From a virus, in the IMG/VR virus record IMGVR_UViG_3300025870_000008, positions 1 through 64,000 of that record: DNA of 64,000 nt; one strand, given 5' to 3'. Shown piece after piece: positions 8,047 to 42,774 of the stretch. Within the stretch, counting starts at the first letter, position 1, and each line of letters opens with the position of its first letter. The position numbers and the translations under genes are program-made. Under the pieces are notes generated by a model. That model was not told the DNA's origin. It ran no database searches and was given only the letters and a program-made list of their open reading frames with translations.

Positions 8047-8304
8047 ATGAAAGAAATTAAAAATATAGCTAAACAACTCAACATCAACAATGCAGGTCTA
8101 TTCGATTCAAAAGAAGAAATGTATGATAAATTAACTTCAAAAGAAATTACTTTAATTAATTTAGTTAAAGCTGAAGAGTTTGTAGAAGATTTATATCGCT
8201 CGACCACTTCTGAAACTAACGCTAAGTTGTTTCCGCCCGAACAATCTTTCTTTAAATTGAAAGAAATTCTAAGAGAATGCAGGTTATTGCAAAAAGGGGG
8301 TTGA
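8047..8304 (+). CDS. hypothetical protein
   Basis: ORF after TTGACA promoter. Confidence 0.65.
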   Translation: MKEIKNIAKQLNINNAGLFDSKEEMYDKLTSKEITLINLVKAEEFVEDLYRSTTSETNAKLFPPEQSFFKLKEILRECRLLQKGG

Positions 8305-8368
8305 CATTACTTCTTAGCTCAACTATGGTAGTCTTATATTAATCACCAATCACAACAAAAGGAAAATT

Positions 8369-8566
8369 ATGAATATCGCAAAATGTGCTCAAGCAACCGC
8401 AATTATGAACAACGTCCGCAATGGAAACTATGTAAGGGGTATGAAGTTTGCAAACTTTGGATCAGTAACAGAAGATAGTTTAATAGCTCAACAAAAAGAA
8501 GCGGACAGAAGATTGCGCGAAATACAAGCATTGCGAGCAAAACAAAAAGTTGCTAAATTTGTATGA
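8369..8566 (+). CDS. hypothetical protein
   Basis: promoter plus AAGGA RBS. Confidence 0.65.
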   Translation: MNIAKCAQATAIMNNVRNGNYVRGMKFANFGSVTEDSLIAQQKEADRRLREIQALRAKQKVAKFV

Positions 8567-9337: not shown

Positions 9338-9675
9338 AATTTGAGCCTAGTCTAATCTCGCAAGAGAAGGGAATCATCGTTTAAATGCCTAAGCTAGACT
9401 CAATTCATTTTAATTCCTACAAGTAGCTAACATTAATCTTAGCGGACAAATAAAACTATTTGTAGGAAAACTTTGGAAGGGCTTATAATCCTTCCTGTGG
9501 GTGACTGAAATAACCTGTTGTGAGCGGGTTAAGGTATACGATTCTCTGTGGTGGAGTACCGATGGGCAAATGTCTGAGGTAGGATTTTCCCAATCCAATT
9601 GTAGTACGAGTAGGCACATAATGAACTAATGTTCACACCGAAAGTTGGGAGTATGTAGTAATCTCCCCCCACATC
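9338..9675 (+). ncRNA. candidate structured non-coding RNA
   Basis: No good ORF; promoter at 9246; many stems with G-U pairs and a GCAA tetraloop; terminator downstream. Confidence 0.5.
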
Positions 9676-9697
9676 TATTTCTCCTATCCCACCCCTC

Positions 9698-10490: not shown

Positions 10491-10563
10491 TAAGTCCTTA
10501 AGTATCAAGCACTTACGGCGGGCCGCCGCCATGCTATCTAAGTGTTTGGTATTCAGGCATTTA
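10491..10563. repeat. double-palindrome module copy 1
   Basis: TAAGTCCTTAAGTATCAAGCACTTA-23bp-TAAGTGTTTGGTATTCAGGCATTTA. Confidence 0.95.
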
Positions 10564-10625
10564 GGCGATAAAAATTATTTAACTTTTTTCTTGCTATAAC
10601 TAACAAACCGCCTTATTGTAGTTAT

Positions 10626-11027
10626 ATGATTAAGAGAAACCAACACGACCCACGATACATCATCAAGAAGAATCGTCCCGTATATGTTTACAAGAATCTA
10701 CACAAAGATTGTTGGAGCATCAAGCAACATGGTTTAGTTAAGGCTCATATTCCCAGGGGAGAAAGTATTGGGCTTTGGGATTGCTATTTTCATGTTGACA
10801 TCAAGGGTAGAGAAAAGGTTCTTCGTGAGAAGCGTAAGAATGTTCATGCTTTTGTTAAGGGTTATCTTCAGGATGCTGAGAACGTTAACATAGATAAGCC
10901 CGCCACAGAGGTAACCTATAACCCATATAAGTATGAAACTTTTGTTGACAAGAACACCGAGAAGTTTGTATACTATGCAGATGAAGTTTTATTATCACAC
11001 AACCAAGTAACCGCCTATATACCATGA
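10626..11027 (+). CDS. conserved hypothetical phage protein
   Basis: VYKNLH..CWS and REKVLREKRKNVHAFV motifs resemble a common uncharacterised phage family. Confidence 0.8.
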   Translation: MIKRNQHDPRYIIKKNRPVYVYKNLHKDCWSIKQHGLVKAHIPRGESIGLWDCYFHVDIKGREKVLREKRKNVHAFVKGYLQDAENVNIDKPATEVTYNPYKYETFVDKNTEKFVYYADEVLLSHNQVTAYIP

Positions 11028-11221
11028 GAATAGAAGAAAGAATGATAGATTATGCCCAAAAGTGGTATAAAGTGAACGACTTAGAGACAGAGAAAAAGAA
11101 CGGATCCGATCTTTATCTTCGTGTCAATGACAATGTATTTACTGAAGTCTCACACTGTGACATCAGACAAAAAGCCATTTTATGGTTGCAATCAGAACTA
11201 GAAGGAGTAATGTATAGTTAA
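11024..11221 (+). CDS. hypothetical protein
   Basis: ATGA-coupled ORF. Confidence 0.65.
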   Translation: MRIEERMIDYAQKWYKVNDLETEKKNGSDLYLRVNDNVFTEVSHCDIRQKAILWLQSELEGVMYS

Positions 11222-11425
11222 ATGAAAGAAGAATTAAAAGCAATTAGATGTGCCATTGACGGAGTCGCTGACGAGATTTTAGAAGATCGTAGACATGCAA
11301 ACATGGGAGACCTCGTCAAGGCAATGGAGAATATCAGCAGTACTCTCTGCACTATCAGCTATGACTTAAAAGATTTAGTTGAAGCAAAAAAGTTTCAGAA
11401 TGAATTAACGACAGCCTTAAGATAG
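11222..11425 (+). CDS. hypothetical protein
   Basis: abuts previous stop; ends 5 nt before module 2. Confidence 0.65.
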   Translation: MKEELKAIRCAIDGVADEILEDRRHANMGDLVKAMENISSTLCTISYDLKDLVEAKKFQNELTTALR

Positions 11426-11430
11426 TTTTG

Positions 11431-11503
11431 TAAGTCGCTCACTCTTAACCACTTAGGGTGAGCGGCGGCAATTTGCCTTAAGTGCTTAGTGTACAAAGAC
11501 TTA
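11431..11503. repeat. double-palindrome module copy 2
   Basis: TAAGTCGCTCACTCTTAACCACTTA-23bp-TAAGTGCTTAGTGTACAAAGACTTA. Confidence 0.95.
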
Positions 11504-11565
11504 TGGAAGTAAAATTAATTAGCTTTTTTCTTGTGTTATTTTGGAAACGGGTTTAGTATTATATT

Positions 11566-11730
11566 ATGAATACGATTGATATAACTCCTACATGGTCAGC
11601 GCTCGTTCCTATTATGATCGAGGTGTTGAAAAACCCAAAAGCTAACAAAACAGCAAAAGCGGAAGTAACACAAGAATTACTTCGCCTCGCAAAGATCGTA
11701 GACGACCAAAACAAAAAAGTCGTCAAATGA
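11566..11730 (+). CDS. hypothetical protein (54 aa, not in ORF track)
   Basis: MNTIDITPTWSALVPIMIEVLKNP...; TTGTGT-17-TAGTAT-6-ATG. Confidence 0.7.
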   Translation: MNTIDITPTWSALVPIMIEVLKNPKANKTAKAEVTQELLRLAKIVDDQNKKVVK

Positions 11731-11766
11731 TTTGACACCAACCCGTAATTAGTATAGTTTAGTATT

Positions 11767-11991
11767 ATGACACAAGACAAGATATTACAAACCATTCGTC
11801 AAATTTGCGAAGGCAACATGAGGTATGCCGATGCCATGGATCGAGTCAATCTCGAACGCGGCAAAGAACTTGGCGTAGATGGATTCACTGTTCAATCGGC
11901 TGAAGAAGCTCTTGCGGATCTCATTTGCTCTCTACAAGACTTTGAACACGAACTATGTATCAATGGCTCAATGGAGGGGGCATCATTATGA
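11767..11991 (+). CDS. hypothetical protein
   Basis: TTGACA-17-TAGTTT-6-ATG. Confidence 0.7.
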   Translation: MTQDKILQTIRQICEGNMRYADAMDRVNLERGKELGVDGFTVQSAEEALADLICSLQDFEHELCINGSMEGASL

Positions 11992-12194
11992 TAGTATTAG
12001 ATACACCAACACAAATCGAGGCATTTAGACTTCGTACATTACTCAAAGGCTTAAAACTTGAAACCATGGGCATGAAGATGTCGAGAGGTGCAAGTTGTTA
12101 TCAAATTGTCAAAGAAGATTTTGGCTTCAAAGGTAACAAGCAAAAAGTCTACGAACAATTCAAAGAATTATTAAAAAAGGAGAAATTAGCATGA
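11988..12194 (+). CDS. hypothetical phage protein
   Basis: ATG at 11988 with GGAGG RBS and ATGA overlap. Confidence 0.7.
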   Translation: MIVLDTPTQIEAFRLRTLLKGLKLETMGMKMSRGASCYQIVKEDFGFKGNKQKVYEQFKELLKKEKLA

Positions 12195-12391
12195 CACAAG
12201 CACAAGTAGAATCACGAGTAGAATCTTGGAATTGGAACATGAACATATTTGAAATTTATGATGAACTTAGAGATAATCACACCTCACAACAACAAGAACA
12301 ATTACTCACACATGCTTACAAATTTTTTAATAAAGATTCTAACATTTTAGAGCTTGCAAACCACTTCGGAATATATAGTATAGAAGAATGA
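12191..12391 (+). CDS. hypothetical protein
   Basis: ATGA-coupled, AGGAG RBS. Confidence 0.7.
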   Translation: MTQAQVESRVESWNWNMNIFEIYDELRDNHTSQQQEQLLTHAYKFFNKDSNILELANHFGIYSIEE

Positions 12392-12645
12392 AAAACAATT
12401 ATATAGAAGCAACCTGCATCGGCAGACCACTAGACTTACCAACTTGGGACGAACCAAGCGAGCTTTGGGAACTTTTCTTTGAAGAATCTCCAACCCCTTA
12501 TCATCCTTATGAGGATAGAGATATTATTTCCGTAAGTTTTGAATCGGCACAAGAGGTGACTAATGCTTACAATTATTACAACCAAAACCCATCCAAAGGA
12601 GGTGCATATGAAGAGTCTATTGAAGAAAATTTATCATTGGTTTAA
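12388..12645 (+). CDS. hypothetical acidic protein
   Basis: ATGA-coupled ORF. Confidence 0.65.
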   Translation: MKNNYIEATCIGRPLDLPTWDEPSELWELFFEESPTPYHPYEDRDIISVSFESAQEVTNAYNYYNQNPSKGGAYEESIEENLSLV

Positions 12646-12841
12646 TCCGATATACAAAATTGTTTATAAAACAATGGACGGGCGAATAGAAATGTACACT
12701 ATAGAACAACCTCGCCACCGCCACGAATTTGGCAATATGAAAGAAGGGAAATCCGTGGTGGGTTTTCGATCATTTTGCATCAATCGTGATGCCGTACGTT
12801 CATTTCGTTACGATAGAATCGTCTCACTTAACAAAATTTAA
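12608..12841 (+). CDS. hypothetical protein, possible WYL/SH3-like C-terminus
   Basis: ATG at 12608 after GGAGGT; C-terminal RDAVRSFRYDRI resembles WYL-type motif. Confidence 0.6.
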   Translation: MKSLLKKIYHWFNPIYKIVYKTMDGRIEMYTIEQPRHRHEFGNMKEGKSVVGFRSFCINRDAVRSFRYDRIVSLNKI

Positions 12842-12842
12842 T

Positions 12843-13001
12843 ATGAAACAAAAAACGGAACAATTAACCCTTCCTGAAATAGTCCGCAGATTAGGACATA
12901 TGCTCGCTCAAAGAGAGCGACGTGGAGATAGCTCACAAGATTATCTTGAAAGAAAAAAGATGCACGATAATTTATTGAGAAAGCTTTATAAGAGCTCCTA
13001 A
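12843..13001 (+). CDS. hypothetical protein
   Basis: ATG at 12843; TAA stop is the first 3 nt of module 3. Confidence 0.6.
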   Translation: MKQKTEQLTLPEIVRRLGHMLAQRERRGDSSQDYLERKKMHDNLLRKLYKSS

Positions 13002-13071
13002 GTCATTGATGGTTAAGCACTTAGGTGCTTGGCCCGCCGCGCGCTCTAAGTGTTTGATATTCAGTGGTTTA
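12999..13071. repeat. double-palindrome module copy 3
   Basis: TAAGTCATTGATGGTTAAGCACTTA-23bp-TAAGTGTTTGATATTCAGTGGTTTA. Confidence 0.95.
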
Positions 13072-13133
13072 GGTAAGTAAAATTAATTCTTTTTTTTCTT
13101 GTGTTATTTTGTTTTTTGGATTACTATATATAT

Positions 13134-13250
13134 ATGAAAGCAAGAGAATTAAAAGTAAGAAAACCAATCCTTTTTACCAAATCGCGTCCACACAAGGTGA
13201 GCGTCAAAACAATCCACAGAAAACTCAAACACAAGGAGGCATTAGCATGA
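13134..13250 (+). CDS. small basic peptide (38 aa, not in track)
   Basis: MKARELKVRKPILFTKSRPHKVSVKTIHRKLKHKEALA; follows module-linked promoter; ATGA overlap with next gene. Confidence 0.55.
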   Translation: MKARELKVRKPILFTKSRPHKVSVKTIHRKLKHKEALA

Positions 13251-13486
13251 ACATCAATCCCGAATTTAATTCCAAAGAAACCCCGTCTGCCGTTGGAGCA
13301 ATGCAAACATCTATGCAATGGTTATGGGAGAATTTTGTCGAGCCTCGTAAGCATGAACTTGATGGCGATGATACCGATATGCTTGCAATGGTTGGTTCAG
13401 TTTTGCTAGACATCGCAAGCGATGCCGAAGCATACCATGAAGTTCAAGGGGAAAAATTTATCGAAAGTCCATATTCTCGCAATTAA
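13247..13486 (+). CDS. hypothetical protein
   Basis: ATG at 13247 with AGGAGG RBS. Confidence 0.7.
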   Translation: MNINPEFNSKETPSAVGAMQTSMQWLWENFVEPRKHELDGDDTDMLAMVGSVLLDIASDAEAYHEVQGEKFIESPYSRN

Positions 13487-13524
13487 CTCTTGACAAAAAC
13501 AATCACTACTATATTATAGACATT

Positions 13525-14394
13525 ATGAATAACGAAGAAAATACCACTATCGCTCCTCGCAAATCCGTTAACCTTAACATCTGCGGAGGTAATCACTCAC
13601 TTGTACCACTTGAAGAAATCGCTAATGTGCCAACTCCGCCCGTAGAGTATCGCCAAAAAGAAAATGCTAATGGCGAGCGCACAGTTTCTTATCAACCAAT
13701 CGCTCACCATGAATTGGTGAATCGTACCAAGGGATTCCTTGCGGGTAATGGTTTCACCATTCAAGATGAAGTTCACTCGCTCGCTCGCAACAACAACCAT
13801 TATTTTGGATTGTTCTCTGTTGAGCATCCTAATCGTGAAGCTACTGATCGTGGAACTGTTGTGGGTATTCGCAACTCTCACGACAAAACTTTTCCTGCGG
13901 GATTGTGTGCGGGTGATGCCCCATTCGTTTGCGACAATCTTATTTTTACAAACACGATCAAACTTGCGCGTCGTCACACTCGCAACATTTTGAACGATTT
14001 AGATTTTACTATCAACCGCGCTCTTGGTAAGTTGTTTGGCTTTTGGCATGGTCAAGATGCTCGCATCGAAGCATACAAAAATCGCTCTATCGGGAATGTA
14101 TATGCTAACGATTTGATTGTCAAAGCTGCGCAGGTAGGAGCGCTTCCCAAATCAAAAATCATTGATGTTGTCAATCAATGGGAATCTTCCGATCATCCCG
14201 AATTTCATTCTCGTGATGTGAACTCTCTTTATAATGCTTTCACCGAAGTATATAAAGGTAACTTAACTCAACTTCCAAATCGTTCGGAGGCTTTACATTC
14301 GGTGCTAGATGGTTATGTCGATTTTAATATCGACTCTCACGTTGACAATGTTTTAGATATGGAGGTAGTCGAAGGCGAATTGGTAGAGGTGTAA
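13525..14394 (+). CDS. DUF932-family phage/plasmid protein
   Basis: YQPIAH, IRNSHDK, FVCDNL, RRHT and SLYNAFTE motifs. Confidence 0.8.
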   Translation: MNNEENTTIAPRKSVNLNICGGNHSLVPLEEIANVPTPPVEYRQKENANGERTVSYQPIAHHELVNRTKGFLAGNGFTIQDEVHSLARNNNHYFGLFSVEHPNREATDRGTVVGIRNSHDKTFPAGLCAGDAPFVCDNLIFTNTIKLARRHTRNILNDLDFTINRALGKLFGFWHGQDARIEAYKNRSIGNVYANDLIVKAAQVGALPKSKIIDVVNQWESSDHPEFHSRDVNSLYNAFTEVYKGNLTQLPNRSEALHSVLDGYVDFNIDSHVDNVLDMEVVEGELVEV

Positions 14395-14414
14395 ATAACC
14401 TCATTTGTGTAGCT

Positions 14415-14444
14415 AACCCCACCCTTTCGGGTGGGGTTTTTTTT
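14415..14444 (+). terminator. rho-independent terminator
   Basis: AACCCCACC-TTTCG-GGTGGGGTT followed by T-tract. Confidence 0.9.
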
Positions 14445-14463
14445 GGCTTGGATTGTTGTTTCA

Positions 14464-14536
14464 CAAGTGATTGATTATCAAGCACTTAGAGGGCGCCGCC
14501 GTCACGCGACTTAACTGCTTGGCGGATAACGACTTA
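14464..14536. repeat. double-palindrome module copy 4
   Basis: CAAGTGATTGATTATCAAGCACTTA-23bp-TAACTGCTTGGCGGATAACGACTTA. Confidence 0.95.
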
Positions 14537-14643
14537 CGAAAGCGAAATTAATTCACTTTTTCCTTGTGTTTATTTAGCCTACGCCTTATTGTTTATGTAT
14601 AAAGATTATTAAACCTAAACAATCACAATCACAATCACACATT

Positions 14644-15651
14644 ATGAAAGTTAAAGCGAGTAACAAACCAAAACTCAACTCTAAATCAGCTTCTGTTATA
14701 AAATTACAAAACTTAAGGAGTAAATTTGCTCAAAAACTTACAGAGGATGAATCTCTAATTATTTCCCTACAATTCGACGCAGAGTTCAAGAGGGATAATT
14801 TCGAGCATAAAGTGGTCGCTCTTACTGCTGATGATCTACCTTTAATTAATTACATGAGGTCTGAAAAAATTAACAACAACAACAGAAGTAAAGATGTTGA
14901 TAATGTCAAAAGGTTATTTCGTTGCCTCAAGGGAGAGGCATGGCATTACGAAACGGACGATATTAAAATTTGCTCCAATGGTTACCTATTAAATGGTCAG
15001 CACACATTGGAAGCTATATCTCAATATTTTAATGATGCTAGCACGTCGGAGGGAACAGAAGTTCTTTTAGGTTTCAAGTTGGGTGTTAGCGCGGGGGCGA
15101 TGCCTTATTTCGACACCCAAAAGAAAAGAAGTCCCGAGCAAAACCTTAAAATTAAGGGTGTTGCTCTCAACCCAATACAAAAGCAAATTGTTTTAGCTGA
15201 GGGCAGATATTCTATACTTGGCAACCCCTTTCCTCAAAGAGGTCAAATTAACTACTTTGAATATGAAAATGTAATTAAAGCCAATCAAGGTATACTAGAT
15301 AGAGTTTTTGATGCGATAAGTTTATCGACAGATTTTCCATGCAAAGCTATTGGCTACGCCTTATTCTTATTAGCTAAAAAAAACGAAGAGCTTGCTCAAG
15401 AGATAATGGACGATATTAGAGAACAACACTCTGAAGCGTTAAAAGACGGATCGATAAAATCTAGGTATAAAGTAAATTTAGGTCAAGAACATAGCTTGGT
15501 AGAACTCTTTCGAGAAGAAAAGCATCTCAAAATGTCCCATATGACAAGTAAGACATCTAGAGATTGTTATCGACAAGAAGAGTTCTTTCCTATTGCGGTG
15601 AATTGGTTGCTTGAAAACTACAAAATTGACAGAAAGACGTTTTCCCTATGA
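14644..15651 (+). CDS. ParB/DGQHR-like N-terminal domain protein
   Basis: NNNR, W..TDDIKI..NGYLLNGQHTLEAI (variant of DGQHR), FD..KKRS. Confidence 0.65.
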   Translation: MKVKASNKPKLNSKSASVIKLQNLRSKFAQKLTEDESLIISLQFDAEFKRDNFEHKVVALTADDLPLINYMRSEKINNNNRSKDVDNVKRLFRCLKGEAWHYETDDIKICSNGYLLNGQHTLEAISQYFNDASTSEGTEVLLGFKLGVSAGAMPYFDTQKKRSPEQNLKIKGVALNPIQKQIVLAEGRYSILGNPFPQRGQINYFEYENVIKANQGILDRVFDAISLSTDFPCKAIGYALFLLAKKNEELAQEIMDDIREQHSEALKDGSIKSRYKVNLGQEHSLVELFREEKHLKMSHMTSKTSRDCYRQEEFFPIAVNWLLENYKIDRKTFSL

Positions 15652-15986
15652 GTTGTTACATTAAACAAGCGATCACTTATTCAAAAGCGCTAGCGTACTA
15701 CATTGGCAACACTAGGCGATGTGCGGAAATTGAGAGGGGTGACCCTAAAAACCAACTAATCTCTAATTTTGAAAAAGAACATGGTAAAATATTTTGGAAG
15801 CTTGTGTTAGTAATCTCCGAAAATGAAACTCATCCCGAATTCGGGGAGTCTTTTTTAATCAATTGTTTCAAGCAAAAATTAAATCAACTTACTTTACTCA
15901 ATAAAAACATACCAAATATTATGGCTCTTACTTATGATAAAAAATCAGAGTCTATTATTGACAAATTTTCTAGATTGATTGTTTAG
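15648..15986 (+). CDS. hypothetical protein, possibly GIY-YIG-like
   Basis: YYIGNTRR...ESFLI...LLN pattern; weak. Confidence 0.45.
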   Translation: MSCYIKQAITYSKALAYYIGNTRRCAEIERGDPKNQLISNFEKEHGKIFWKLVLVISENETHPEFGESFLINCFKQKLNQLTLLNKNIPNIMALTYDKKSESIIDKFSRLIV

Positions 15987-15998
15987 GTTTAAACTGCG

Positions 15999-16071
15999 TA
16001 AGTTGCTGGTCTTCAGTGACTTACGTCAGTCTGCCGCCGCGCCGCTTAACTGCTTGATAAGCAACAACTTA
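15999..16071. repeat. double-palindrome module copy 5
   Basis: TAAGTTGCTGGTCTTCAGTGACTTA-23bp-TAACTGCTTGATAAGCAACAACTTA. Confidence 0.95.
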
Positions 16072-16133
16072 CGAAAGTAAATTTAATTCACTTTTTTCTT
16101 GTGTTCGGTTGGGTTTGGTAGTACTTTATACTT

Positions 16134-16334
16134 ATGAAAAGAATAATTAAAATCTTAATGGAGCGTGACGGGTTTTCTCATGAAGACGCTGAATTGCAAG
16201 TAAGCGCTTTTTTCTCTGAAATGGCTCTCCACTTAAATCAAGGCGGTGACCCTTTCGAGTGGGAAACTTTATTTGTTGACGAGTTCGGTTTAGAGCCTGA
16301 CTTTTTTGAAGATTTAGTGTTTGCATTACTTTAA
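16134..16334 (+). CDS. conserved hypothetical phage protein
   Basis: ILMERDG...EFGLEPDF motif; TTGTGT-17-TACTTT-6-ATG. Confidence 0.75.
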   Translation: MKRIIKILMERDGFSHEDAELQVSAFFSEMALHLNQGGDPFEWETLFVDEFGLEPDFFEDLVFALL

Positions 16335-16355
16335 AAATTAGTTTACTTTATTATT

Positions 16356-17084
16356 ATGATTAACCTACTATCCAATCCAAGCAAGATGCCTTGCTATTCG
16401 TTCAACATTCCTGCTTTCAAGTATTGCCCTGCCGCGCAGCTATTAGCAAAGATTAAAGAAGCGGGCAAAAAGTTTATTTGTGATTCTTGCTATGCTTGCA
16501 AAGGTTTTTATATGTTTTCCAATGTAAAGGCTAGCTTGCAAGGTAAAGCGGATCTTATCACAAAATCTTTACATCAAGACAACGGGCAAACCTTTATTGA
16601 CGCAATGTGCAAGCAAATTCGCGCAAAGTATTTTGACAAGCACGGCAACAAGAAAAAGCTTAAAAAGACCAACACCGATTTATTTCGCGTTCATGATTCG
16701 GGCGACCTCTTTTCCCCTAAGTATATTGCCGCGTGGGTTAAGATTTGCGAGCAATTCCCAACTATTAAATTTTGGTTTCCAACTAGGGAATGGAAGCGTG
16801 ACTCTCAACTTCCACACTTGCAAAAGTTAGCTAGTCTCAAAAACGTTTGCATTAAGCCAAGCGCTATTTATGTTGACGAGACAGCCCCTCAAGTGGACGG
16901 ACTTGACGCGGGAACTTCAGTTTATACTAGCAAAGAGAAAGCCGAGCAAGACGGACATTTTGTTTGCCCCGCAACTTATGTAAAGGGCGAGGACGGCAAG
17001 ATTCTTGCAACTTGTCAAGCCCATAATTGCAATCTTTGTTTCATTAAGGGTTGCAAGAAAGGTATTGCATATTTAGCTCATTAA
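16356..17084 (+). CDS. GP88-like Cys-rich phage protein
   Basis: SKMP, CP, CDSCYA, FRVHDSGD, WFPTRE and C-terminal Cys cluster. Confidence 0.75.
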   Translation: MINLLSNPSKMPCYSFNIPAFKYCPAAQLLAKIKEAGKKFICDSCYACKGFYMFSNVKASLQGKADLITKSLHQDNGQTFIDAMCKQIRAKYFDKHGNKKKLKKTNTDLFRVHDSGDLFSPKYIAAWVKICEQFPTIKFWFPTREWKRDSQLPHLQKLASLKNVCIKPSAIYVDETAPQVDGLDAGTSVYTSKEKAEQDGHFVCPATYVKGEDGKILATCQAHNCNLCFIKGCKKGIAYLAH

Positions 17085-17099
17085 ACTATACTTAAAACC

Positions 17100-17309
17100 A
17101 TGAAGACAGAAAATTACCAACTATTATTCGAGAGCGGGGATACTTATTACGATTCAGCCTATGGAGTTGATATTGACCAAGACCGAGCAATTCAGGAGTT
17201 GAAAGCTCACGGGGTTGATTTAGAAAAAGAATTGCAAAATTTTTATGATGATTTAGGCGACAAAGAAGGGTACGCAGCGCAAGACGTCTTAGAGTGGTTA
17301 GGGTACTGA
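17100..17309 (+). CDS. hypothetical acidic protein
   Basis: ends 2 nt before module 6. Confidence 0.7.
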   Translation: MKTENYQLLFESGDTYYDSAYGVDIDQDRAIQELKAHGVDLEKELQNFYDDLGDKEGYAAQDVLEWLGY

Positions 17310-17311
17310 CA

Positions 17312-17384
17312 TAAGTACCTAACCACCAAGCACTTAGAGAGCGCGGCGGCGGCGGTGCCTAACTGCTTGATATTCAACGATTTA
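17312..17384. repeat. double-palindrome module copy 6
   Basis: TAAGTACCTAACCACCAAGCACTTA-23bp-TAACTGCTTGATATTCAACGATTTA. Confidence 0.95.
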
Positions 17385-17446
17385 AAGAATTAAAATTAAT
17401 TCACTTTTTTCTTGTGTTTATTTGGTGTCGGGGTTATGTTGTTAGT

Positions 17447-17653
17447 ATGAATCATTCAGAAAGCGGAACACGAAAAGTATTAAAACAACTGCGCAAATGC
17501 GCAGAAATTACCGAGATCAAACAAACCGCCAAAGGGCACATGGTTCTCGCTGATAACGGAGCGCAAATTCTTGTTCATTTAAGCGCTCGTGCTTTTCACC
17601 CATTACGTCGTTGGCTCAAAGCTAACACTTCACTAAAATCATTAAAATTCTAA
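17447..17653 (+). CDS. small basic protein, HicA-like fold possible
   Basis: ATG at 17447; helix, KQTAKGHMVL, ILVH, helix pattern. Confidence 0.5.
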   Translation: MNHSESGTRKVLKQLRKCAEITEIKQTAKGHMVLADNGAQILVHLSARAFHPLRRWLKANTSLKSLKF

Positions 17654-17655
17654 TT

Positions 17656-17838
17656 ATGACAGCAAAAGAACTAATCGAACTTATCAATTCAACCCAGGAC
17701 GGAGAGATTTGGCTCTACAGTAGTAAACTTAGAGACCATCTTGCCACAGTCGAGCAAGCATTGGAGGAGGATTTAATCCACTTCATCCGCGCTGACGTAG
17801 GGAACAGCACCACAGAATTCATTCGTGTTTCTATTTGA
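17656..17838 (+). CDS. hypothetical protein
   Basis: 60-aa ORF. Confidence 0.6.
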   Translation: MTAKELIELINSTQDGEIWLYSSKLRDHLATVEQALEEDLIHFIRADVGNSTTEFIRVSI

Positions 17839-17869
17839 CACAGAGCAAAAATTAAACTACTTTATACTT

Positions 17870-18109
17870 ATGACAATTAAAGACAACGGAAAAGAATTCT
17901 ACTTCGAGCGCTTACCTAATGGCTTGCTCAGAACTTATGACTATGAATCAAAGTGGGATATTACATTCCAACGAGTTGACGGAGTATGGGAAGGACACCA
18001 TCGAGGCGACTATATCGGCTACAAAGGCTTACTCAACAAACTCAACTTATTACAACAACAAGTAGATGCAGAAAGAGCATTAGCAAAAGATTTAGCCGAA
18101 GTAGCTTGA
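17870..18109 (+). CDS. hypothetical protein
   Basis: TTGACA-17-TACTTT-6-ATG at 17870. Confidence 0.7.
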   Translation: MTIKDNGKEFYFERLPNGLLRTYDYESKWDITFQRVDGVWEGHHRGDYIGYKGLLNKLNLLQQQVDAERALAKDLAEVA

Positions 18110-18142
18110 CAAACAAAACAAACTAATTTAGTTTATTATTAT

Positions 18143-18529
18143 ATGAAAACATTCGATGATTTAAAATTCACACACCATAAAGATATTCAAAGATGGACTG
18201 CATCGCTTGAGCTTGACAACGGATATTTATTTTCTGTTATTGCGGGCGACAAAGAAGACGATTGGTCTTTACCTTATGGTACTTATCAGAATGAAACTTT
18301 TGAAGTTGCAGTATTTGGTACTCAATTTGACGACAACGGAGACAGAAAGAAAGTTCCTCTTTCTTTACATGATGATGTGCTAGGATGGCAAAAGCCTATT
18401 GACATTTCTAAACTCATGAGGCAATTTCAACTTGACGGAAAAGCTCACGAAGATTTGCTTATAGCAATTCGAGTAGACTTCAATGAAAAACTTGTTTCGC
18501 ATCACGATGACAAACCTTTAGTCATTTAA
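18143..18529 (+). CDS. conserved hypothetical phage protein
   Basis: MKTFDDLKF, NGY..SVI, FEVAV, DDVLGW motifs; own TTGACA promoter. Confidence 0.8.
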   Translation: MKTFDDLKFTHHKDIQRWTASLELDNGYLFSVIAGDKEDDWSLPYGTYQNETFEVAVFGTQFDDNGDRKKVPLSLHDDVLGWQKPIDISKLMRQFQLDGKAHEDLLIAIRVDFNEKLVSHHDDKPLVI

Positions 18530-18565
18530 TTTGACAAACCTTAAAAACTACATTACCTTATTATT

Positions 18566-18832
18566 ATGACATTAACACAAGAACAAAGAATATCGGTTAT
18601 CAAACACGCGCACGAAAATTCTCGTAAAGTTTCTCCGACTCAATCAGTCGAGGATTTTATTGCAGACATCAAGTCAGAGCAAGTTTTGGGCGAGCATGGT
18701 TTAGTAGATGCTCAAGTCCACGACGTGGAGGATGAGATGTCTTTATTCGCTTATAATCCTTGCGCTGAAGATATTGACGAGGAAGAAGATGGCTTTGGAA
18801 TTAGCGATGAAATGAAAGGGCTTTACTCATGA
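18566..18832 (+). CDS. hypothetical acidic protein
   Basis: TTGACA-17-TACCTT-6-ATG. Confidence 0.7.
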   Translation: MTLTQEQRISVIKHAHENSRKVSPTQSVEDFIADIKSEQVLGEHGLVDAQVHDVEDEMSLFAYNPCAEDIDEEEDGFGISDEMKGLYS

Positions 18833-18971
18833 GTTTATTTGCAATCGCTATACTTGCATTAGTTTTATACTTGACAATTCAAGATTAAAACTATAAACAG
18901 CGAAATACCAAATACCCAAATATTTTGTTTGTCGAAGGTGTGATATGCAGTAGTTACTAAAACCCCCGCCC

Positions 18972-19043
18972 TAAGTCTTTGATTATCAAGCACTTAGGCG
19001 GGCGGCTGCCGAAGCACCTAAGTGCTTCAGTATCAACGACTTA
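18972..19043. repeat. double-palindrome module copy 7 (convergent junction)
   Basis: TAAGTCTTTGATTATCAAGCACTTA-22bp-TAAGTGCTTCAGTATCAACGACTTA. Confidence 0.95.
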
Positions 19044-19283
19044 TTAAAAGTCGTATTGGTCGTGATAGCCGTAGTCGATGTCCTCGTAATGGTCTTCCCA
19101 TACGGGGGAATCTTCAGCCTCGTACATTTCAGCGAGAAGAGGTTGCTCCTCAAGGTAGCGCTCTTCCGCAAGGGCTTGGTTTGCTCGAGCAATATCTCTA
19201 TTGATCTCCTGCATTTGGTGGGCTTGCTGGTTTGCAAGGGCGGCGTGATCGTTGCGGTCGAAGTGTGAGTATTTACTAATCAT
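19044..19283 (-). CDS. hypothetical acidic protein
   Basis: ATG at 19283 after TTGCTA-17-TATGTT on minus strand; stop abuts module 7. Confidence 0.7.
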   Translation of the reverse strand: MISKYSHFDRNDHAALANQQAHQMQEINRDIARANQALAEERYLEEQPLLAEMYEAEDSPVWEDHYEDIDYGYHDQYDF

Positions 19284-19347
19284 ATATAAACAACATAAAG
19301 GGAGTGGCAACGGATAGCAAGAAAAAAAGCGATTTATTTTTATTTTT

Positions 19348-19420
19348 TAAATCCTTGGTTATCAAGCACTTAGAGCTCGCGGCGGCGGGCCGATATAACT
19401 CTTTGATTATCAACATTTTA
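19348..19420. repeat. double-palindrome module copy 8 (divergent junction)
   Basis: TAAATCCTTGGTTATCAAGCACTTA-23bp-TAACTCTTTGATTATCAACATTTTA; promoters on both sides. Confidence 0.95.
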
Positions 19421-19589
19421 CACAAGATAAAAAAACTAAAGATTTTTCTTGCTTTATTATACAGAACATGGCATATTAAAGTATGAAAAGAAAAAAACTA
19501 AAAATTATTAAAATTAAACACGCTAAATCGTATAACAAATTTATGATTGTTAAAATGCCTAAATTCTCACTTCTTAAATCTGCTTAATT

Positions 19590-19814
19590 ATGAATTGCAA
19601 AAGAGTACCATACCCAGAACTAGACTGCTCCCTTAAAATGAGTAAAGTGGAGGGGCTGCTTCAATTCCTTAAAGGTCAGACTATGATGGGTTGGAGAGGA
19701 AGCGAGACAGAAAAAGAAGCAATTTGCGAAGCTCTTGACAACTTACGAGAAGCTCAAGATGAATATCAAAAAGTCTTGACATTACTTAGAAAAACCAACA
19801 AAATAGAATTATGA
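19590..19814 (+). CDS. hypothetical protein
   Basis: 74-aa ORF, ATGA overlap with next. Confidence 0.6.
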   Translation: MNCKRVPYPELDCSLKMSKVEGLLQFLKGQTMMGWRGSETEKEAICEALDNLREAQDEYQKVLTLLRKTNKIEL

Positions 19815-20041
19815 CGGATACAACATATAATGGATGGAAAAACTGGGCAACCTGGAACGTAGCGCTATGGCTAGGTAATGATGAGGGTCTTTATAAGATA
19901 GCTCGAAGATGTGTGAGGTATGCTGACCTCGTGGATAGGTTAGAAGAAGCTGAAGCATTCAGGACTCCTGACGGGGCGAGCTACAATGACCCCGACCTTG
20001 ATACCTACGCACTTGATGAGTTGTTAATGGACGAATTCTGA
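19811..20041 (+). CDS. conserved hypothetical phage protein
   Basis: YNGWKNWATWNVALWLGNDEGLY...TPDG motif of a common uncharacterised phage family. Confidence 0.8.
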   Translation: MTDTTYNGWKNWATWNVALWLGNDEGLYKIARRCVRYADLVDRLEEAEAFRTPDGASYNDPDLDTYALDELLMDEF

Positions 20042-20046
20042 TAACC

Positions 20047-20118
20047 TAACCCGCTGACTATCAAGCACTTACGAAGCGGGCTGCCGAGCCCTCTAAGTGC
20101 TTGATTATTAGTGACTTA
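20047..20118. repeat. double-palindrome module copy 9 (convergent junction)
   Basis: TAACCCGCTGACTATCAAGCACTTA-22bp-TAAGTGCTTGATTATTAGTGACTTA. Confidence 0.95.
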
Positions 20119-20126
20119 GGAGGTTG

Positions 20127-20279
20127 TTATTTATTTTTGAATTCGTTAATGATTTGGTTAAAAGTCCAAACGTTGTTTCCAACGTCCAAGAATAGTTCTG
20201 CGCCTTCGAGTGGTTCAAAGCCTAGGCGGTCAATGATGCCTAGCTCTTCCGTCATGAATTTTTCGAGTTCTTCTGTCAT
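20127..20279 (-). CDS. hypothetical protein (50 aa, not in track)
   Basis: MTEELEKFMTEELGIIDRLGFEPLEG...; AGGAG RBS. Confidence 0.6.
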   Translation of the reverse strand: MTEELEKFMTEELGIIDRLGFEPLEGAELFLDVGNNVWTFNQIINEFKNK

Positions 20280-20310
20280 GTTTTTATTCTCCTAAATTAA
20301 AGGGTTTATG

Positions 20311-20655
20311 TCAAATTAAATCGTAATATTTTGGTGAACAATTTACTGAATGAGAAACTGAATCAATTCCCTCATCCATGTTTTTTTTCAAATATGCTTT
20401 GATTTTGTTTGCAATTTCGAGGTCAATTTTTTCAAGCTTTTTTCCGTCTTCGTCAAATATGTCCATATTTTCCAAAGTGTCGAAATATGCTATCAGGTGA
20501 GTCTCTGAGACTTGGTCGCCATAGAGCGAGTCGATTTCGTCTGTCCATGTCGTGCCTTCAATTTCACAAGTTAAATTTTCAATTTCCACATAGGCAGAAA
20601 AAGTTTCTTCGTTAATTTCGTCAAAGTTTAATTCTAGTTTTTTATTTTCTGTCAT
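20311..20655 (-). CDS. highly acidic protein
   Basis: TTGACT-17-GATAGT-5-ATG on minus strand. Confidence 0.75.
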   Translation of the reverse strand: MTENKKLELNFDEINEETFSAYVEIENLTCEIEGTTWTDEIDSLYGDQVSETHLIAYFDTLENMDIFDEDGKKLEKIDLEIANKIKAYLKKNMDEGIDSVSHSVNCSPKYYDLI

Positions 20656-20769
20656 ACCTTACTATCTTCTATTTTTTAACTAAAGTCAAACATATAGCCG
20701 ATTATTTTACATAAAGTTATTCACAATTATCTTGGCTAGAGTTGGCACGATTCCTGTACAAGGCTTTCA

Positions 20770-20840
20770 TAAGTCGTTGATTATCAAGCTGTTACGAGAG
20801 CCGCAGCGCGTTCCCTAAGTGCTTGACTATAAGGAACTTA
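20770..20840. repeat. double-palindrome module copy 10
   Basis: TAAGTCGTTGATTATCAAGCTGTTA-21bp-TAAGTGCTTGACTATAAGGAACTTA. Confidence 0.95.
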
Positions 20841-20845
20841 CAACG

Positions 20846-21016
20846 CTATCTTTGAGTCATAGCCTCTAGCTCTCGGATCTTAAAGTCAAGCTGAATTTGC
20901 ATGGCTTGCAAGCGATTGACTGATTCGGTTTTATTTAGACGTTTTGCTTTTATCCTTTGGATATTGATATCCATGATTTGCTTATTTAAGAATTTGATTT
21001 GTTCTACTATATTCAT
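20846..21016 (-). CDS. small coiled-coil protein (56 aa, not in track)
   Basis: MNIVEQIKFLNKQIMDINIQRIKAKRLNK...; ATGA overlap upstream. Confidence 0.55.
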   Translation of the reverse strand: MNIVEQIKFLNKQIMDINIQRIKAKRLNKTESVNRLQAMQIQLDFKIRELEAMTQR

Positions 21017-21129
21017 TTTCTTGACACGTCTTGGAAAAGGTCGATTTGATCGCTAGTCATATCTCTATACATAAGATAGAAAACAACTAACCAATTTGAG
21101 AACATAAGTATTTCAAGTATTGTATTCAT
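21013..21129 (-). CDS. small membrane peptide (38 aa, not in track)
   Basis: MNTILEILMFSNWLVVFYLMYRD... Confidence 0.45.
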   Translation of the reverse strand: MNTILEILMFSNWLVVFYLMYRDMTSDQIDLFQDVSRK

Positions 21130-21183
21130 GATTATAGATTAAGGAAGTAGTAAACAAAAGACAAGCATATTATTGTAAGCATA

Positions 21184-21351
21184 TTATTTTTCTTTTATTT
21201 GGTTTACGATTTGCAAGTGTGGATTCTCGCGTTTGATTGCCCTTGCTTTTTCTAAGGCTTTTGCTATATTCTTTTGATTGTCTACTAGCTCGCCCCAAAG
21301 ACGAATATCTAACCAATTTGAGAAGTTTACGTTTTTTGTGATTGTTATCAT
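21184..21351 (-). CDS. hypothetical protein (55 aa, not in track), paralog of 7820..8038
   Basis: MITITKNVNFSNWLDIRLWGELVDNQKNIAKALEKARAIKREN; GGAGG RBS. Confidence 0.65.
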   Translation of the reverse strand: MITITKNVNFSNWLDIRLWGELVDNQKNIAKALEKARAIKRENPHLQIVNQIKEK

Positions 21352-21361
21352 TATTGCCTCC

Positions 21362-21556
21362 TTATCTTGTGAAGTATTCTTTTACTTGTCCATTGTTAGC
21401 TTTAACCAAGTCAGAGAGGTAAACCTCTTCTGATTCGTTGTGATGCTTTACTAAAGCTAAGCGCATTCTGTTGCTCAGTTCAGTTACTCTTACGACTTTG
21501 CCTAATGACTTCGAGAAGTACAGGCTTCCGACTTTGTATCCTTTTTCAATCTTCAT
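21362..21556 (-). CDS. hypothetical protein, SH3-like size and pattern
   Basis: TTGACG-17-GATAGT-6-ATG. Confidence 0.7.
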   Translation of the reverse strand: MKIEKGYKVGSLYFSKSLGKVVRVTELSNRMRLALVKHHNESEEVYLSDLVKANNGQVKEYFTR

Positions 21557-21628
21557 ACTATTACTATCGTATATTTTAGCCTCTACGTCAAACTTTTTAA
21601 CGATTTATTTTAGCTGTTTTTGCTTTCT

Positions 21629-21699
21629 TAAGTCGTTGATTATTAGGCACTTATGACGCGGGCGGCGCGACCCCTAAGTGCTTGAATATCAGGTGTTTA
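21629..21699. repeat. double-palindrome module copy 11
   Basis: TAAGTCGTTGATTATTAGGCACTTA-21bp-TAAGTGCTTGAATATCAGGTGTTTA. Confidence 0.95.
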
Positions 21700-21921
21700 G
21701 GAATGCCGAGCTTCTAACTTATCAAGGAACTTTTCAAACCTTTTGTGCTTGACTTTTAGTTCGGCAAGTCTCTTTTCTGCTCTCCTTAGCTCGGGCATGG
21801 CAAGCATTTCGATTGCCATTTCATCTGCCTTTGGATTTGTCGAGTTCTTACGGGTGTTATCTATTACGGATTTGATTTGCTTGATCCGTGCTTCGGTGTG
21901 GATTATATCTAATTCTGTCAT
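21697..21921 (-). CDS. hypothetical coiled-coil protein
   Basis: TTGCAA-17-GATAGT-6-ATG; stop overlaps the end of module 11. Confidence 0.7.
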   Translation of the reverse strand: MTELDIIHTEARIKQIKSVIDNTRKNSTNPKADEMAIEMLAMPELRRAEKRLAELKVKHKRFEKFLDKLEARHS

Positions 21922-22443: not shown

Positions 22444-22668
22444 ACTATTACTATCGTCTATTTACAGGTTGAAGTCAAATTTATTTACGATTATTATTCA
22501 ACTAAGTTTTTGCACGATCCCGCCCCCATTTTTTGAATTTTTTTTACAGGGTATGGTTCATTTTTAGCGGGGGGGTGGTTTTTCTCAAAAAGTCAAGACG
22601 AATTTCTCTGTGCAATTACATATGTGAAAAAAAAACCGACAAACCTTTTTTTTACTGTACTCATATGT

Positions 22669-40887: not shown

Positions 40888-42774
40888 ATGTCAGGGTGCA
40901 ATAATAGTCAAATACCCGTAATTGCAAAAAAAATATTTGATTCTGAATTTTACGATCAATTTGACGAAACAGATAGCAATTACGAAAAATCCGTAGCCAA
41001 TTTTCTGTTAAGAATTGAAGCTTGGTTAGAAACGAATATTGGACAGCTTAATATACTTATTCATTCTGGATATAGAGTAACTCATAGCGAGCATATTTGC
41101 CCACAGATAAACCCAGAAGAGATAGCTATTTTCATACAGCTATACTTAAAGGAGTACTATAAGAGACAAGCCCACAATTCTTTAAAGAATGTGAGCTCAA
41201 GTTCTACGAAAACTACATCTGGAGAATCTACTGTCTTTATGACGGATTGGGTGGAATTACGCGAAGGAGATTCTTCAATAAAAAGACAATCTTTAATATC
41301 TACGCCGCAGCAAAAAATACAAGCTGCTCAAGCATTTAAAGGTATTTCTCAAGATGCTAACATAAAGCTTCAGGAGATGGTTCAGTATTATAATTTGCAT
41401 AAAGCTTTACCCAGGCAAGTTGTTGCTAGGTATACAGGAGATTCTGATTGTAGTCAAAAACCAAACGGTTGTGATGAGCAAATAAACTCGTGCCCCCCAG
41501 AGGTAACCCCGACGATAACTTATACAATCATATCAACGCCTACAACAACTAAAACCGCTACAGTTACCGAAACGGCTACAATCACACCAACTGATACAGT
41601 CACAAAAACGGCTACGATCACTAAAACTGCTACAATTACCCCAACAACTACAGCTACCGAAACGGCTACAGTTACCGAAACAGCTACGGCTACCGAAACA
41701 GCTACGGCTACCGAAACAGCTACGGCTACCGAAACAGCTACGGCTACCGAAACAGCTACGGCTACCGAAACAGCTACAGCTACTGAAACCATTACAGCAA
41801 CGGAGACAACTACGACTACCGAAACCATTACAGCAACGGAGACAACTACGACTACCGAAACCATTACAGCAACGGAGACAACTACGACTACCGAAACAGC
41901 TACAGCGACCGAAACGGCTACGATCACACCAACTGCTACAGTCACGCCGACACTTACAATAACTAAAACAACAACCCATACTTCAACTTTTGATGAATGC
42001 TGTGGTGAGGTAAACAATTTAATAGACATCGTTAACACTAGTGATATAGTAGAAAGCGATAGAAGAACTGGAGAAGAAATATTAATTCAAGATATATCAA
42101 ATCTAATGCGAGATTCCTCTGTTTGTATTGGTAGAGTATCAGAATCAGTAGACCTTAAAACGGTAAATATTAAAGTAGGAAATGTAGATCCAACAAAAGA
42201 ATTTTCCTTGGCTACAGTAAAATTCGAAGGAGATCTTAATAATCAAACAATTTTTATTAAAAAGAGGTATGGAGATGTAAACTCTGGCGTAGACCCAGTA
42301 GATCAATTTTTTAGTACAGAGTCCACCCCTACAGAAACCAATAATCCATGTGGCTATGGATATTGTGTAGAGTATACCCCTTGTCAAGAAGGAGATGTTG
42401 ACCCGTCAAAATGTATTGACAGATTAGTTTGTAGTAGAGCTCTAGACATTGCAAATGTGCATATTGCTTTCAGACCTGGGCAAATCCCTCCTGAAGTTTT
42501 CGTAGATGTGGGAAGATGTTATCGCAAAGTAGGAGAGTCTCAAGCTAAAGATTGTAGTTTCTTTATTGATGACAATACAGACTGCGGAGGAACTGGAGAT
42601 AAATTTTTAAATGAAACAGAATTTAATAAAAATTTTGTTAAAAAACTAAATGATACCGTAGCTATCGCAGATGATTGCAATCAATGTTGTGCGTGCTCTC
42701 AGGATACGACATGTTTTAGTTGCGATATACAGTGGTCTGGAAACTCTGGAGATTGTGACGTCTCGAACTCTTGA
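40888..42774 (+). CDS. putative head-tail adaptor fused to Thr-rich stalk and Cys-rich domain
   Basis: position after capsid; ~160-aa Thr/Ala/Glu tract; Cys-rich C-terminus. Confidence 0.6.
   Translation: MSGCNNSQIPVIAKKIFDSEFYDQFDETDSNYEKSVANFLLRIEAWLETNIGQLNILIHSGYRVTHSEHICPQINPEEIAIFIQLYLKEYYKRQAHNSLKNVSSSSTKTTSGESTVFMTDWVELREGDSSIKRQSLISTPQQKIQAAQAFKGISQDANIKLQEMVQYYNLHKALPRQVVARYTGDSDCSQKPNGCDEQINSCPPEVTPTITYTIISTPTTTKTATVTETATITPTDTVTKTATITKTATITPTTTATETATVTETATATETATATETATATETATATETATATETATATETITATETTTTTETITATETTTTTETITATETTTTTETATATETATITPTATVTPTLTITKTTTHTSTFDECCGEVNNLIDIVNTSDIVESDRRTGEEILIQDISNLMRDSSVCIGRVSESVDLKTVNIKVGNVDPTKEFSLATVKFEGDLNNQTIFIKKRYGDVNSGVDPVDQFFSTESTPTETNNPCGYGYCVEYTPCQEGDVDPSKCIDRLVCSRALDIANVHIAFRPGQIPPEVFVDVGRCYRKVGESQAKDCSFFIDDNTDCGGTGDKFLNETEFNKNFVKKLNDTVAIADDCNQCCACSQDTTCFSCDIQWSGNSGDCDVSNS
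41500..41990 (+). repeat. coding tandem repeats (18-bp TETATA and 36-bp TETITATETTTT units)
   Basis: ACCGAAACAGCTACGGCT x5; GAAACCATTACAGCAACGGAGACAACTACGACTACC x3. Confidence 0.95.

Follow-up and report, generated by a model that had tools for sequence, protein, structure and literature searches.

What is the repeat that separates small groups of genes in the early region of an uncultured marine phage, and does it mark sites at which a recombinase moves those groups about? The window, meaning the whole stretch of DNA analysed here, comprises bases 1-64000 of an 80,842-bp IMG/VR virus record (IMGVR_UViG_3300025870_000008), rated complete by CheckV; the repeat, referred to below as the module, is an element of about 73 bp, whose coordinates are given from box to box. 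An earlier note on this DNA had proposed, from the coincidence of strand switches with modules, that promoter-bearing cassettes are inverted, excised or exchanged at these sites by a recombinase. The modules form a repeat family that is conserved as sequence, is phased with promoters and stands where gene cassettes have been rearranged among relatives; the properties of the module and the gene complement of the phage point away from a dedicated recombinase.

Structure, conservation and promoter phasing of the module

Matches to an 18-mer of the module at three or fewer mismatches number 17 in the window, against 0.16 expected and a maximum of one in any of 100 shuffles; all 17 lie within 10,498-21,692, and the 16.8 kb of genome outside the window contain none. 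A profile search of the copies finds exactly eleven modules, each on both strands and all in 10.5-21.7 kb. In the module, two 25-bp palindromes of the type TAAGTnnTTGAT-N-ATCAAnnACTTA enclose 23 G+C-rich bases, which gives four quarter-sites of the type TAAGTnnTTGAT in two halves that each have a 1-nt centre and stand 23 nt apart. It begins and ends with TA and is nearly identical to its own reverse complement. Between the halves lies a conserved GGCNGCC, with variable G+C-rich bases on either side; in an alignment of 39 module copies, which was used for all conservation tests, C43 and G45 of this centre are present in every copy and G42 and C46 in 38 of 39, leaving column 44 as the sole free base. 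Rfam has no family that matches the modules, and a limited literature search found no published description of this module, which may nonetheless be published.

The module could in principle be conserved as a fold or as a sequence, and the earlier note had likened it to the foldable layout of integron attC sites. The alignment does not bear this likeness out, being conserved in sequence with arms that do not covary. The columns that never vary among the 39 copies number eleven; they comprise AA and TT in the outer boxes, a single T or A within every TTGAT or ATCAA, and C and G at the centre. RNAalifold predicts no pairs (0) on the 39 copies. Under a model of one long hairpin, 69.2% of cells pair, compared with 70.5 +/- 0.7% when the 3' partners are shuffled among copies, and 485 of 500 shuffles equal or exceed the observed pairing; under a model of three hairpins the figures are 70.4% and 70.5%. 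Mismatches of the G:T kind (82) are about as frequent as those of the A:C kind (68), so neither strand is favoured. Since the arms pair no better than shuffled arms and departures are uncompensated, the potential for pairing derives only from the likeness of each arm to the palindromic consensus. As read from the alignment, this pattern appears to be the signature of base-specific recognition of double-stranded DNA, the opposite of what attC sites display.

The copies occupy fixed places relative to genes. Copies 1 (10491-10563, two 25-bp palindromic halves and a GC-rich spacer), 2 (11431-11503), 3 (12999-13071), 4 (14464-14536), 5 (15999-16071) and 6 (17312-17384) are followed by copy 7 (18972-19043), which lies between convergent genes at the end of plus-strand genes that extend to 18832. 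Beyond it are a minus-strand gene (19044-19283), copy 8 (19348-19420) between divergent genes, plus-strand genes from about 19483 to 20041, copy 9 (20047-20118) between convergent genes, and minus-strand genes from 20127, within the cluster of which lie copies 10 (20770-20840) and 11 (21629-21699). The cassettes between modules contain one to seven ORFs (open reading frames) each, on both strands. The switches of strand at copies 7, 8 and 9 are as the earlier note described them, according to the ORF list and the module coordinates, and its observation that stop codons adjoin modules also holds: three ORFs, with ends at 13001, 19044 and 21697, run into or up to copies 3, 7 and 11 (the first TAA of copy 3 being the stop codon of the upstream ORF, and copy 11 overlapping the stop of ORF 21697-21921), and the stops at copies 2, 5, 6, 9 and 10 are 2-12 nt from the module. 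A boundary or roadblock role fits this position after stops and between convergent genes.

After the module there is commonly a motif of the type TTTTCTTG(C/T), the TTG of which starts 26-28 nt past the last box in 21 of the 39 copies. A phased -35 TTG of this kind accompanies seven of the eleven modules of this genome, with copy 8 using both of its sides; a -10-like hexamer lies about 17 nt downstream of the TTG, and the ATG 5-8 nt past the -10. The first genes after modules are presumably nearly leaderless, except that copy 4 has a leader of about 45 nt instead. Each unit of A/T-rich spacer and weak promoter on the plus strand begins at the base after its module: 10564-10625 after copy 1 (TTG 27 nt past the copy, with weak -35 and -10; ATG at 10626), 11504-11565 after copy 2 (ATG at 11566), 13072-13133 after copy 3 (ATG at 13134), 14537-14643 after copy 4 (the unit with the leader; ATG at 14644), 16072-16133 after copy 5 (ATG at 16134) and 17385-17446 after copy 6 (ATG at 17447). 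To the left of copy 8, a weak minus-strand promoter unit (19284-19347, 27 nt from the left end) is predicted to drive the ORF 19283-19044, and to its right a plus-strand unit (19421-19482, 28 nt from the right end) precedes an ATG at about 19483, a short ORF and then the ORF 19590-20041. Copies 7, 9, 10 and 11 lack a phased promoter; the earlier note had recognised this for the first two. The spacer from module to promoter varies in sequence and is constant in length, which argues for selection on distance, that is, on contact or geometry between a factor bound to the module and RNA polymerase.

A candidate for such a factor is a DNA-bending protein of the IHF (integration host factor) type, a lead that arises because each quarter-site fits WATCAANNNNTTR, which we take to be the IHF binding consensus. 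Exact matches to this consensus in the window number 34, against 9.6 +/- 3.2 expected, and 17 of them lie inside modules, covering ten of the eleven; the invariant columns of the module coincide with the specified CAA and TT positions of the consensus. As a caveat on this lead, the four intervening bases of the IHF-like sites are also conserved in the inner sites.

Promoter-like sequences of other kinds are found in the same region. A sigma-54-like -24/-12 motif at 20743-20757 (+) is situated about 10 nt before copy 10 and is kept before modules in six other contigs, at L201 9947 and 11023, L079 687 and 1362, L093 5726, L156 2873 and L199 1238, and in G004, which is the reverse complement of L202 (position 14726 in that orientation). 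The motif consists of TGGCAYG, four bases and YTGT, the usual GC at -12 being GT; it precedes only a subset of modules, in every instance on the other strand from the nearby minus-strand genes, where it would fire into the module, antisense to the cluster. Two classes of promoters are free of modules: one (TTGACA, 17 nt, TAGTTT-type; repeat family D6) lies a few bases before the ATGs of plus-strand genes at 17835-18567 (+), and the other (TTGAC(T/G), 17 nt, GATAGT) lies before minus-strand genes, with sites at 22478, 21591 and 20689.

Cassette rearrangement among relatives and samples

The record encodes rIIA, rIIB, a large terminase, PhoH, a 2798-aa tape-measure protein and ribonucleotide reductase, and its gene set, including the tape-measure protein and the terminase, therefore indicates a long-tailed siphophage. 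There is no close cultured phage: the large terminase shares no more than 28% identity with those of cultured phages, and no relative of it was found in the bacterial genome collection. A search of cultured-phage DNA gave a single 75-nt match, within the gene 19811-20041, to records of Synechococcus phage ACG-2014d. The ORFs of the module region mostly match no Pfam family or only domains of unknown function (DUFs). By a word index, 14 marine metagenome runs contain this DNA with a share of at least 0.55, three of which may be its source, and two independent marine runs carry it at 99% identity or more.

Modules are also present in other viral contigs. The profile search identifies 9, 10 and 9 of them in the early regions of G001, G002 and G004, respectively (G003 and G005 are near-duplicates of G004 and were not counted as separate relatives), clusters of 11-15 half-site matches occur within about 10 kb in five viral records, and nine further loci contain modules, with near-duplicates counted apart. 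The sequence of the module is kept even between phages with no more than 65-78% identity in the flanking DNA, and copies at orthologous cassette borders are common to relatives. Among the matches listed for at least 120 bacterial genome loci with the two-arm pattern there is no full module. A 14-mer scan of viral contigs returned at least 117 single matches, nearly all due to chance and few of them real loci. Unrelated phage contigs of about 60 kb (sample 3300045988 and others; L139, L145, L163 and L168 among them) have multiple copies of a short perfect hairpin with a consensus TTGACA promoter directly after it, which is another PeSL-like repeat family (PeSL, promoter early stem-loop, a repeat of T4-type phages); these are not relatives of the module and were matched only because their stem shares the 9-mers used in the search.

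When the gene groups between modules are called cassettes C1 to C11, and the coordinates of G001 are given as those of L200, the relatives differ in arrangement. As regards REARRANGEMENTS, the order in this genome is C1, C2, C3, C4, C5, C6; in G001, C3 and C1 come first, then C2, which contains the C4 genes, then C5, the second half of C6 and, after it, the first half, linked with the final gene of C8; in G004 it is C2, C3, C5, C1, after which C6 is split and ordered as in G001. Nucleotide homology extends from module to module in blocks such as 12999-14543, corresponding to L200 5570-7104, and 16033-17422, corresponding to L200 11413-12772, and a single module can terminate one block and begin another. 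For blocks of at least 200 bp, 14 of 37 ends are no more than 40 nt from a module, where 15% would be expected (binomial p = 6e-4, calculated on ends that are not independent). In L093, homologues of the genes at 17447 and 19811 are on the opposite strand between two modules, while the homologue of the gene at 18566 keeps its strand; judging by gene strands, this cassette is inverted in place relative to five other arrangements (this genome, G001, G002, G004 and L156).

Populations closer to the reference differ at the same elements. In this comparison, runs with a small word share (X17-X24) were left out, and only the covered parts of the stretch were interpreted. In contigs of other samples that are 90-95% identical, 573 other letters stand in place of the cassette that separates copies 7 and 8, flanked by 19027 and 19395; copy 9 is missing together with its cassette, 20034 being joined to 20765 and 730 letters skipped; and the first gene after copy 6 is deleted. 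Another such contig has a 2.2-kb deletion between two minus-strand promoter repeats of the GATAGT class, with 20275 joined to 22440. An independent sample has the reference order, with zero differences over 11268-16218 (copies 2-5) and 18548-20138 (copies 7-9), and no strand-changing joints are listed in four runs.

Colinear gene order among relatives had been named beforehand as the outcome that would count against cassette exchange; the relatives are not colinear, and the idea of exchange survives. The comparisons support the view that cassettes bounded by modules have been exchanged, lost, inverted, translocated and replaced among relatives, and the three strand switches at copies 7, 8 and 9 are best explained by events at the level of cassettes. 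The recombinase-driven mechanism that the earlier note attached to such exchange finds no comparable support. Three-way alignments involving the closer pair, G001 and G004, allowed points of crossover to be mapped in three modules: the switch from likeness to the upstream partner to likeness to the downstream partner falls in the core of one module (G1 module 12663), in the right half of another and after the right half of a third. Crossovers that vary in position across some 100 bp of common sequence are more in keeping with homologous recombination than with cleavage at a fixed site. An attempt to assign a best-matching relative to the halves and core of each copy was too noisy to use.

Two adjacent small genes at 8047-8566 (+) are in swapped order compared with L200 4086-4537 (G001) and L202 16776-17224 (G004); the pair is on the same strand with no module between, so rearrangement is not confined to modules. 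A DUF932-like gene (289 aa, 13525-14394 here) is split in G001 into ORFs of 62 and 128 aa (L200 6083-6956) and is probably disrupted there. An ORF-free stretch immediately upstream of the module region contains a full-length match to the manA RNA (Rfam RF01745) at 9475-9677 (+), which scores 77.8 bits (gathering score 55.2; E = 1e-18). Far from the modules, about 26 tandem 18-nt units at 41504-41987 (+), inside a 628-aa ORF (40888-42774), and similar units at 60729-60842 appear as Thr-rich repeats of structural proteins.

Explanations weighed

We consider it rather probable that the module is a protein-bound boundary or regulatory element that doubles as a hotspot for homologous recombination, PeSL-like in kind and new in its type of sequence. 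As a recognition element in double-stranded DNA, as opposed to a folded RNA or a site in single-stranded DNA, it would mark the borders of small early-gene cassettes, after stop codons and mostly about 27 nt upstream of a weak promoter. A host or phage protein would bind it, and the bound complex would insulate neighbouring cassettes in both directions and aid the adjacent promoter. Module and promoter together make up a repeat of about 100 bp, with 9-11 copies per genome, on which general homologous recombination may act. Because the repeat is multi-copy and close to its own reverse complement, homologous recombination could delete, insert, translocate or invert whole cassettes, changes that have recurred in this phage lineage, inversions being possible since a module that resembles its own reverse complement can pair in either orientation.

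Several points weigh against this proposal. Modules without a phased promoter are found in the more distant relatives L034, L059 and L093, and likewise in four of the eleven copies here, so help to a promoter cannot be the whole function and the module must also act alone. The IHF consensus is degenerate and built into the repeat, such that its 17 matches within modules count as one observation. Scans of the region with Pfam and PHROGs found no DNA-binding or recombination protein, none of the 20 region proteins having a DNA-binding domain over the Pfam threshold; the sole HU/IHF-like signal is a sub-threshold match (14.9-16.8 bits) of a 66-aa ORF. Most block ends (23 of 37) are away from modules, chiefly at plain gene boundaries within cassettes, where genes are also replaced, and the mapping of crossovers relies on few informative sites in three junctions. 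Single copies can fold, and purifying selection toward a palindromic consensus would preserve a hairpin without covariation. Finally, the unit of gain or loss, one cassette with one module, is also the product expected of a site-specific system. The 66-aa ORF mentioned above (16134-16334, +) is conserved in all four related contigs and matches only positions 4-40, the N-terminal helices, of PF00216; lacking the DNA-binding arms, its product might, speculatively, interfere with the host HU/IHF dimer.

Folding at the RNA level offers an alternative that we think unlikely, in which the long hairpin or the three hairpins would be a bidirectional terminator, an RNase III processing site or a stabiliser of mRNA 3' ends. 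The location of modules right after stops and between convergent genes would suit it, as would the folding energies predicted for single copies (-16 to -41 kcal/mol on either strand), and the stem-loops of PeSLs, according to the report describing them, were shown to terminate transcription (PMC2839356). It is opposed by the lack of covariation, with about 30% of arm positions unpaired, by the near parity of G:T and A:C mismatches, and by the invariance of specific bases while adjacent stem positions drift uncompensated. T runs are absent after all of the copies, and the 12 sites scored as terminator-like include none of the modules. The separate terminator that the earlier note had placed before copy 4 is present (14415-14445, +), with a 10-bp stem at 14415-14438 and a T run; it is the only canonical intrinsic terminator in 9-23 kb, and in G001 a canonical terminator likewise directly precedes the counterpart of copy 4. 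RNA-library contigs bridge copies 3, 4 and 6, a weak argument because such libraries can contain DNA; these runs are available as contigs, which cannot reveal transcript ends, strand or level, and no conclusion on termination was drawn from them. That the module is a selfish miniature element, resembling a MITE (miniature inverted-repeat transposable element) or REP (repetitive extragenic palindromic) sequence, spread by a host transposase and with incidental regulatory effects, would explain a palindromic, intergenic, multi-copy repeat with TA at both ends; REP sequences and BIMEs (bacterial interspersed mosaic elements), as available accounts describe them, are likewise paired palindromes that bind host proteins. 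We regard this as very improbable, given that the phage has no match to a Y1 transposase, that the listed matches at bacterial two-arm loci (at least 120) include no full module, that placement relative to stops and the 27 nt to promoters are fixed, that the modules are confined to one 11-kb region, and that relatives share copies at orthologous cassette borders.

Site-specific recombination, by host XerCD or an unrecognised phage enzyme that cuts the conserved centre and inverts, excises or inserts cassettes as in integrons and shufflons, is the explanation closest to that of the earlier note. A dyad-symmetric element with an almost invariant GGCNGCC centre would be a plausible substrate, the sequence is conserved where flanks are 65-78% identical, cassettes are gained and lost one at a time with one module, the L093 cassette is inverted in place between two modules, and one mapped switch point is in a core (G1 module 12663). 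The enzyme, however, is not in evidence: the report that the window encodes no recombinase proved correct and extends to the whole 80.8-kb genome, which has no match at E<=1 to tyrosine recombinases (PF00589; the control was positive in 14 of 14 genomes), and none to serine recombinases (PF00239), Y1 transposases (PF01797), RecT (PF03837), ERF (PF04404) or YqaJ (PF09588). The inverted arms around a variable 6-8-bp core that had been claimed are not what the alignment contains, as the centre is conserved, the halves are 23 nt apart and the half-centres are 1 nt. Two of the three mapped switch points are outside the core, the strict phasing of promoters at 27 nt suggests a transcriptional role, four runs yield no strand-changing joint and an independent sample keeps the reference order; taken together, the six unmatched families, the misfit of layout, the variable switch points and the stable order make this mechanism quite improbable. 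A long shot of similar standing is that the modules are sites of a dedicated phage system for cassette exchange that needs no known recombinase, in which whole promoter-bearing cassettes would be actively inverted, released as circles and traded among phages during co-infection. In one version, the cruciform-prone double palindromes may be cut by a structure-specific nuclease (the phage encodes an ERCC4-type nuclease); in another, a conserved early protein such as the DUF932 protein (13525-14394) may process the modules. If true, such a system would be an integron-like generator of diversity in lytic marine phages.

Comparison with known systems

The protein-bound boundary element that we favour has partial counterparts in several systems. 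Sites of the attC type conserve their fold rather than their sequence, and integron cassettes are mostly promoterless, co-oriented and single-gene, and are read from the promoter Pc. The phage region resembles an integron in being an array of small cassettes with one imperfectly palindromic site each, of which cassette plus site is the unit of gain and loss. It differs in having no integrase (PF00589 being unmatched in the whole genome), attI or common promoter; in the module, it is the sequence that is conserved, without covariation; and seven of its eleven modules have promoters of their own, with cassettes of 1-7 ORFs on both strands. Core sites of tyrosine recombinases (Xer/dif, lambda att) are composed of two inverted arms of about 11 bp around a central region of 6-8 bp, a layout from which the module departs with its 1-nt half-centres, 23-nt gap and conserved GGCNGCC. 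REP sequences and BIMEs of enterobacteria are paired palindromes of intergenic 3' regions, with a subclass that binds IHF, a GTAG/CGTC tag and an associated Y1 transposase (RAYT). The module is likewise a pair of palindromes, and for both, binding of architectural proteins and roles as boundaries and recombination substrates have been proposed; yet the module is borne by a phage and confined to one region, its alignment has no GTAG/CGTC tag, the phage has no PF01797 match, and its IHF-like motifs form the palindromes that flank a GC-rich centre, whereas those of REP/BIME lie between two REPs.

Stoperators of cluster A mycobacteriophages, as the cited papers describe them, are 13-bp asymmetric, orientation-dependent sites that are bound by the immunity repressor and block elongation as a roadblock (PMC9283540, PMC6550527). 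The likeness, a functional analogy only, is that of many copies of one protein-binding site (putative here) in intergenic positions near stop and start codons; the module differs from these described sites in being 73 bp long and symmetric, with no named repressor.

The closest known system is that of the PeSLs, and the module is filed as a variant of the PeSL kind. In T4-type phages, according to the published accounts, PeSLs are cassettes of promoter and stem-loop in hyperplastic regions, where recombination shuffles ORFans (ORFs without known relatives), and terminator activity, promoter activity and mini-circles have been shown experimentally (Arbiol et al. 2010, PMC2839356; Comeau et al. 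2014, PMC4122927). Both systems, as far as those accounts go, have dispersed intergenic repeats of about 70-100 bp in a plastic early or ORFan region, in which a palindromic element is associated with a stop codon, an A/T-rich tract and a promoter of the sigma-70 type (with the promoter phased in 21 of 39 copies here), and in both the genes between copies are inserted, deleted and replaced, with ends of rearrangements in the repeats that are attributed to homologous recombination. The differences are considerable. The phage here is a siphophage and PeSL phages are T4-type myophages; the module has a fixed 73-bp sequence with four quarter-sites 27 nt from the -35, whereas the PeSLs described are variable G/C stem-loops in variable placement; weak -35 sequences and near-leaderless starts take the place of the consensus promoters and Shine-Dalgarno sites reported for PeSLs; and the module is put to use in either orientation, with one cassette standing inverted.

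As a PeSL-like element, the module would extend the idea of repeated regulatory cassettes as joints for the shuffling of phage accessory genes beyond T4-type myophages, to an abundant uncultured lineage of marine siphophages. It provides a sequence tag for locating the plastic regions of such phages in metagenomes, and natural examples of cassette translocation, deletion, replacement and inversion that can be traced in public marine data. More elaborate than a PeSL in its four conserved quarter-sites, conserved centre, strict promoter phasing and use in both orientations, the module is also a candidate, open to testing, for an insulator that works in both directions through a bound protein and assists the promoter.

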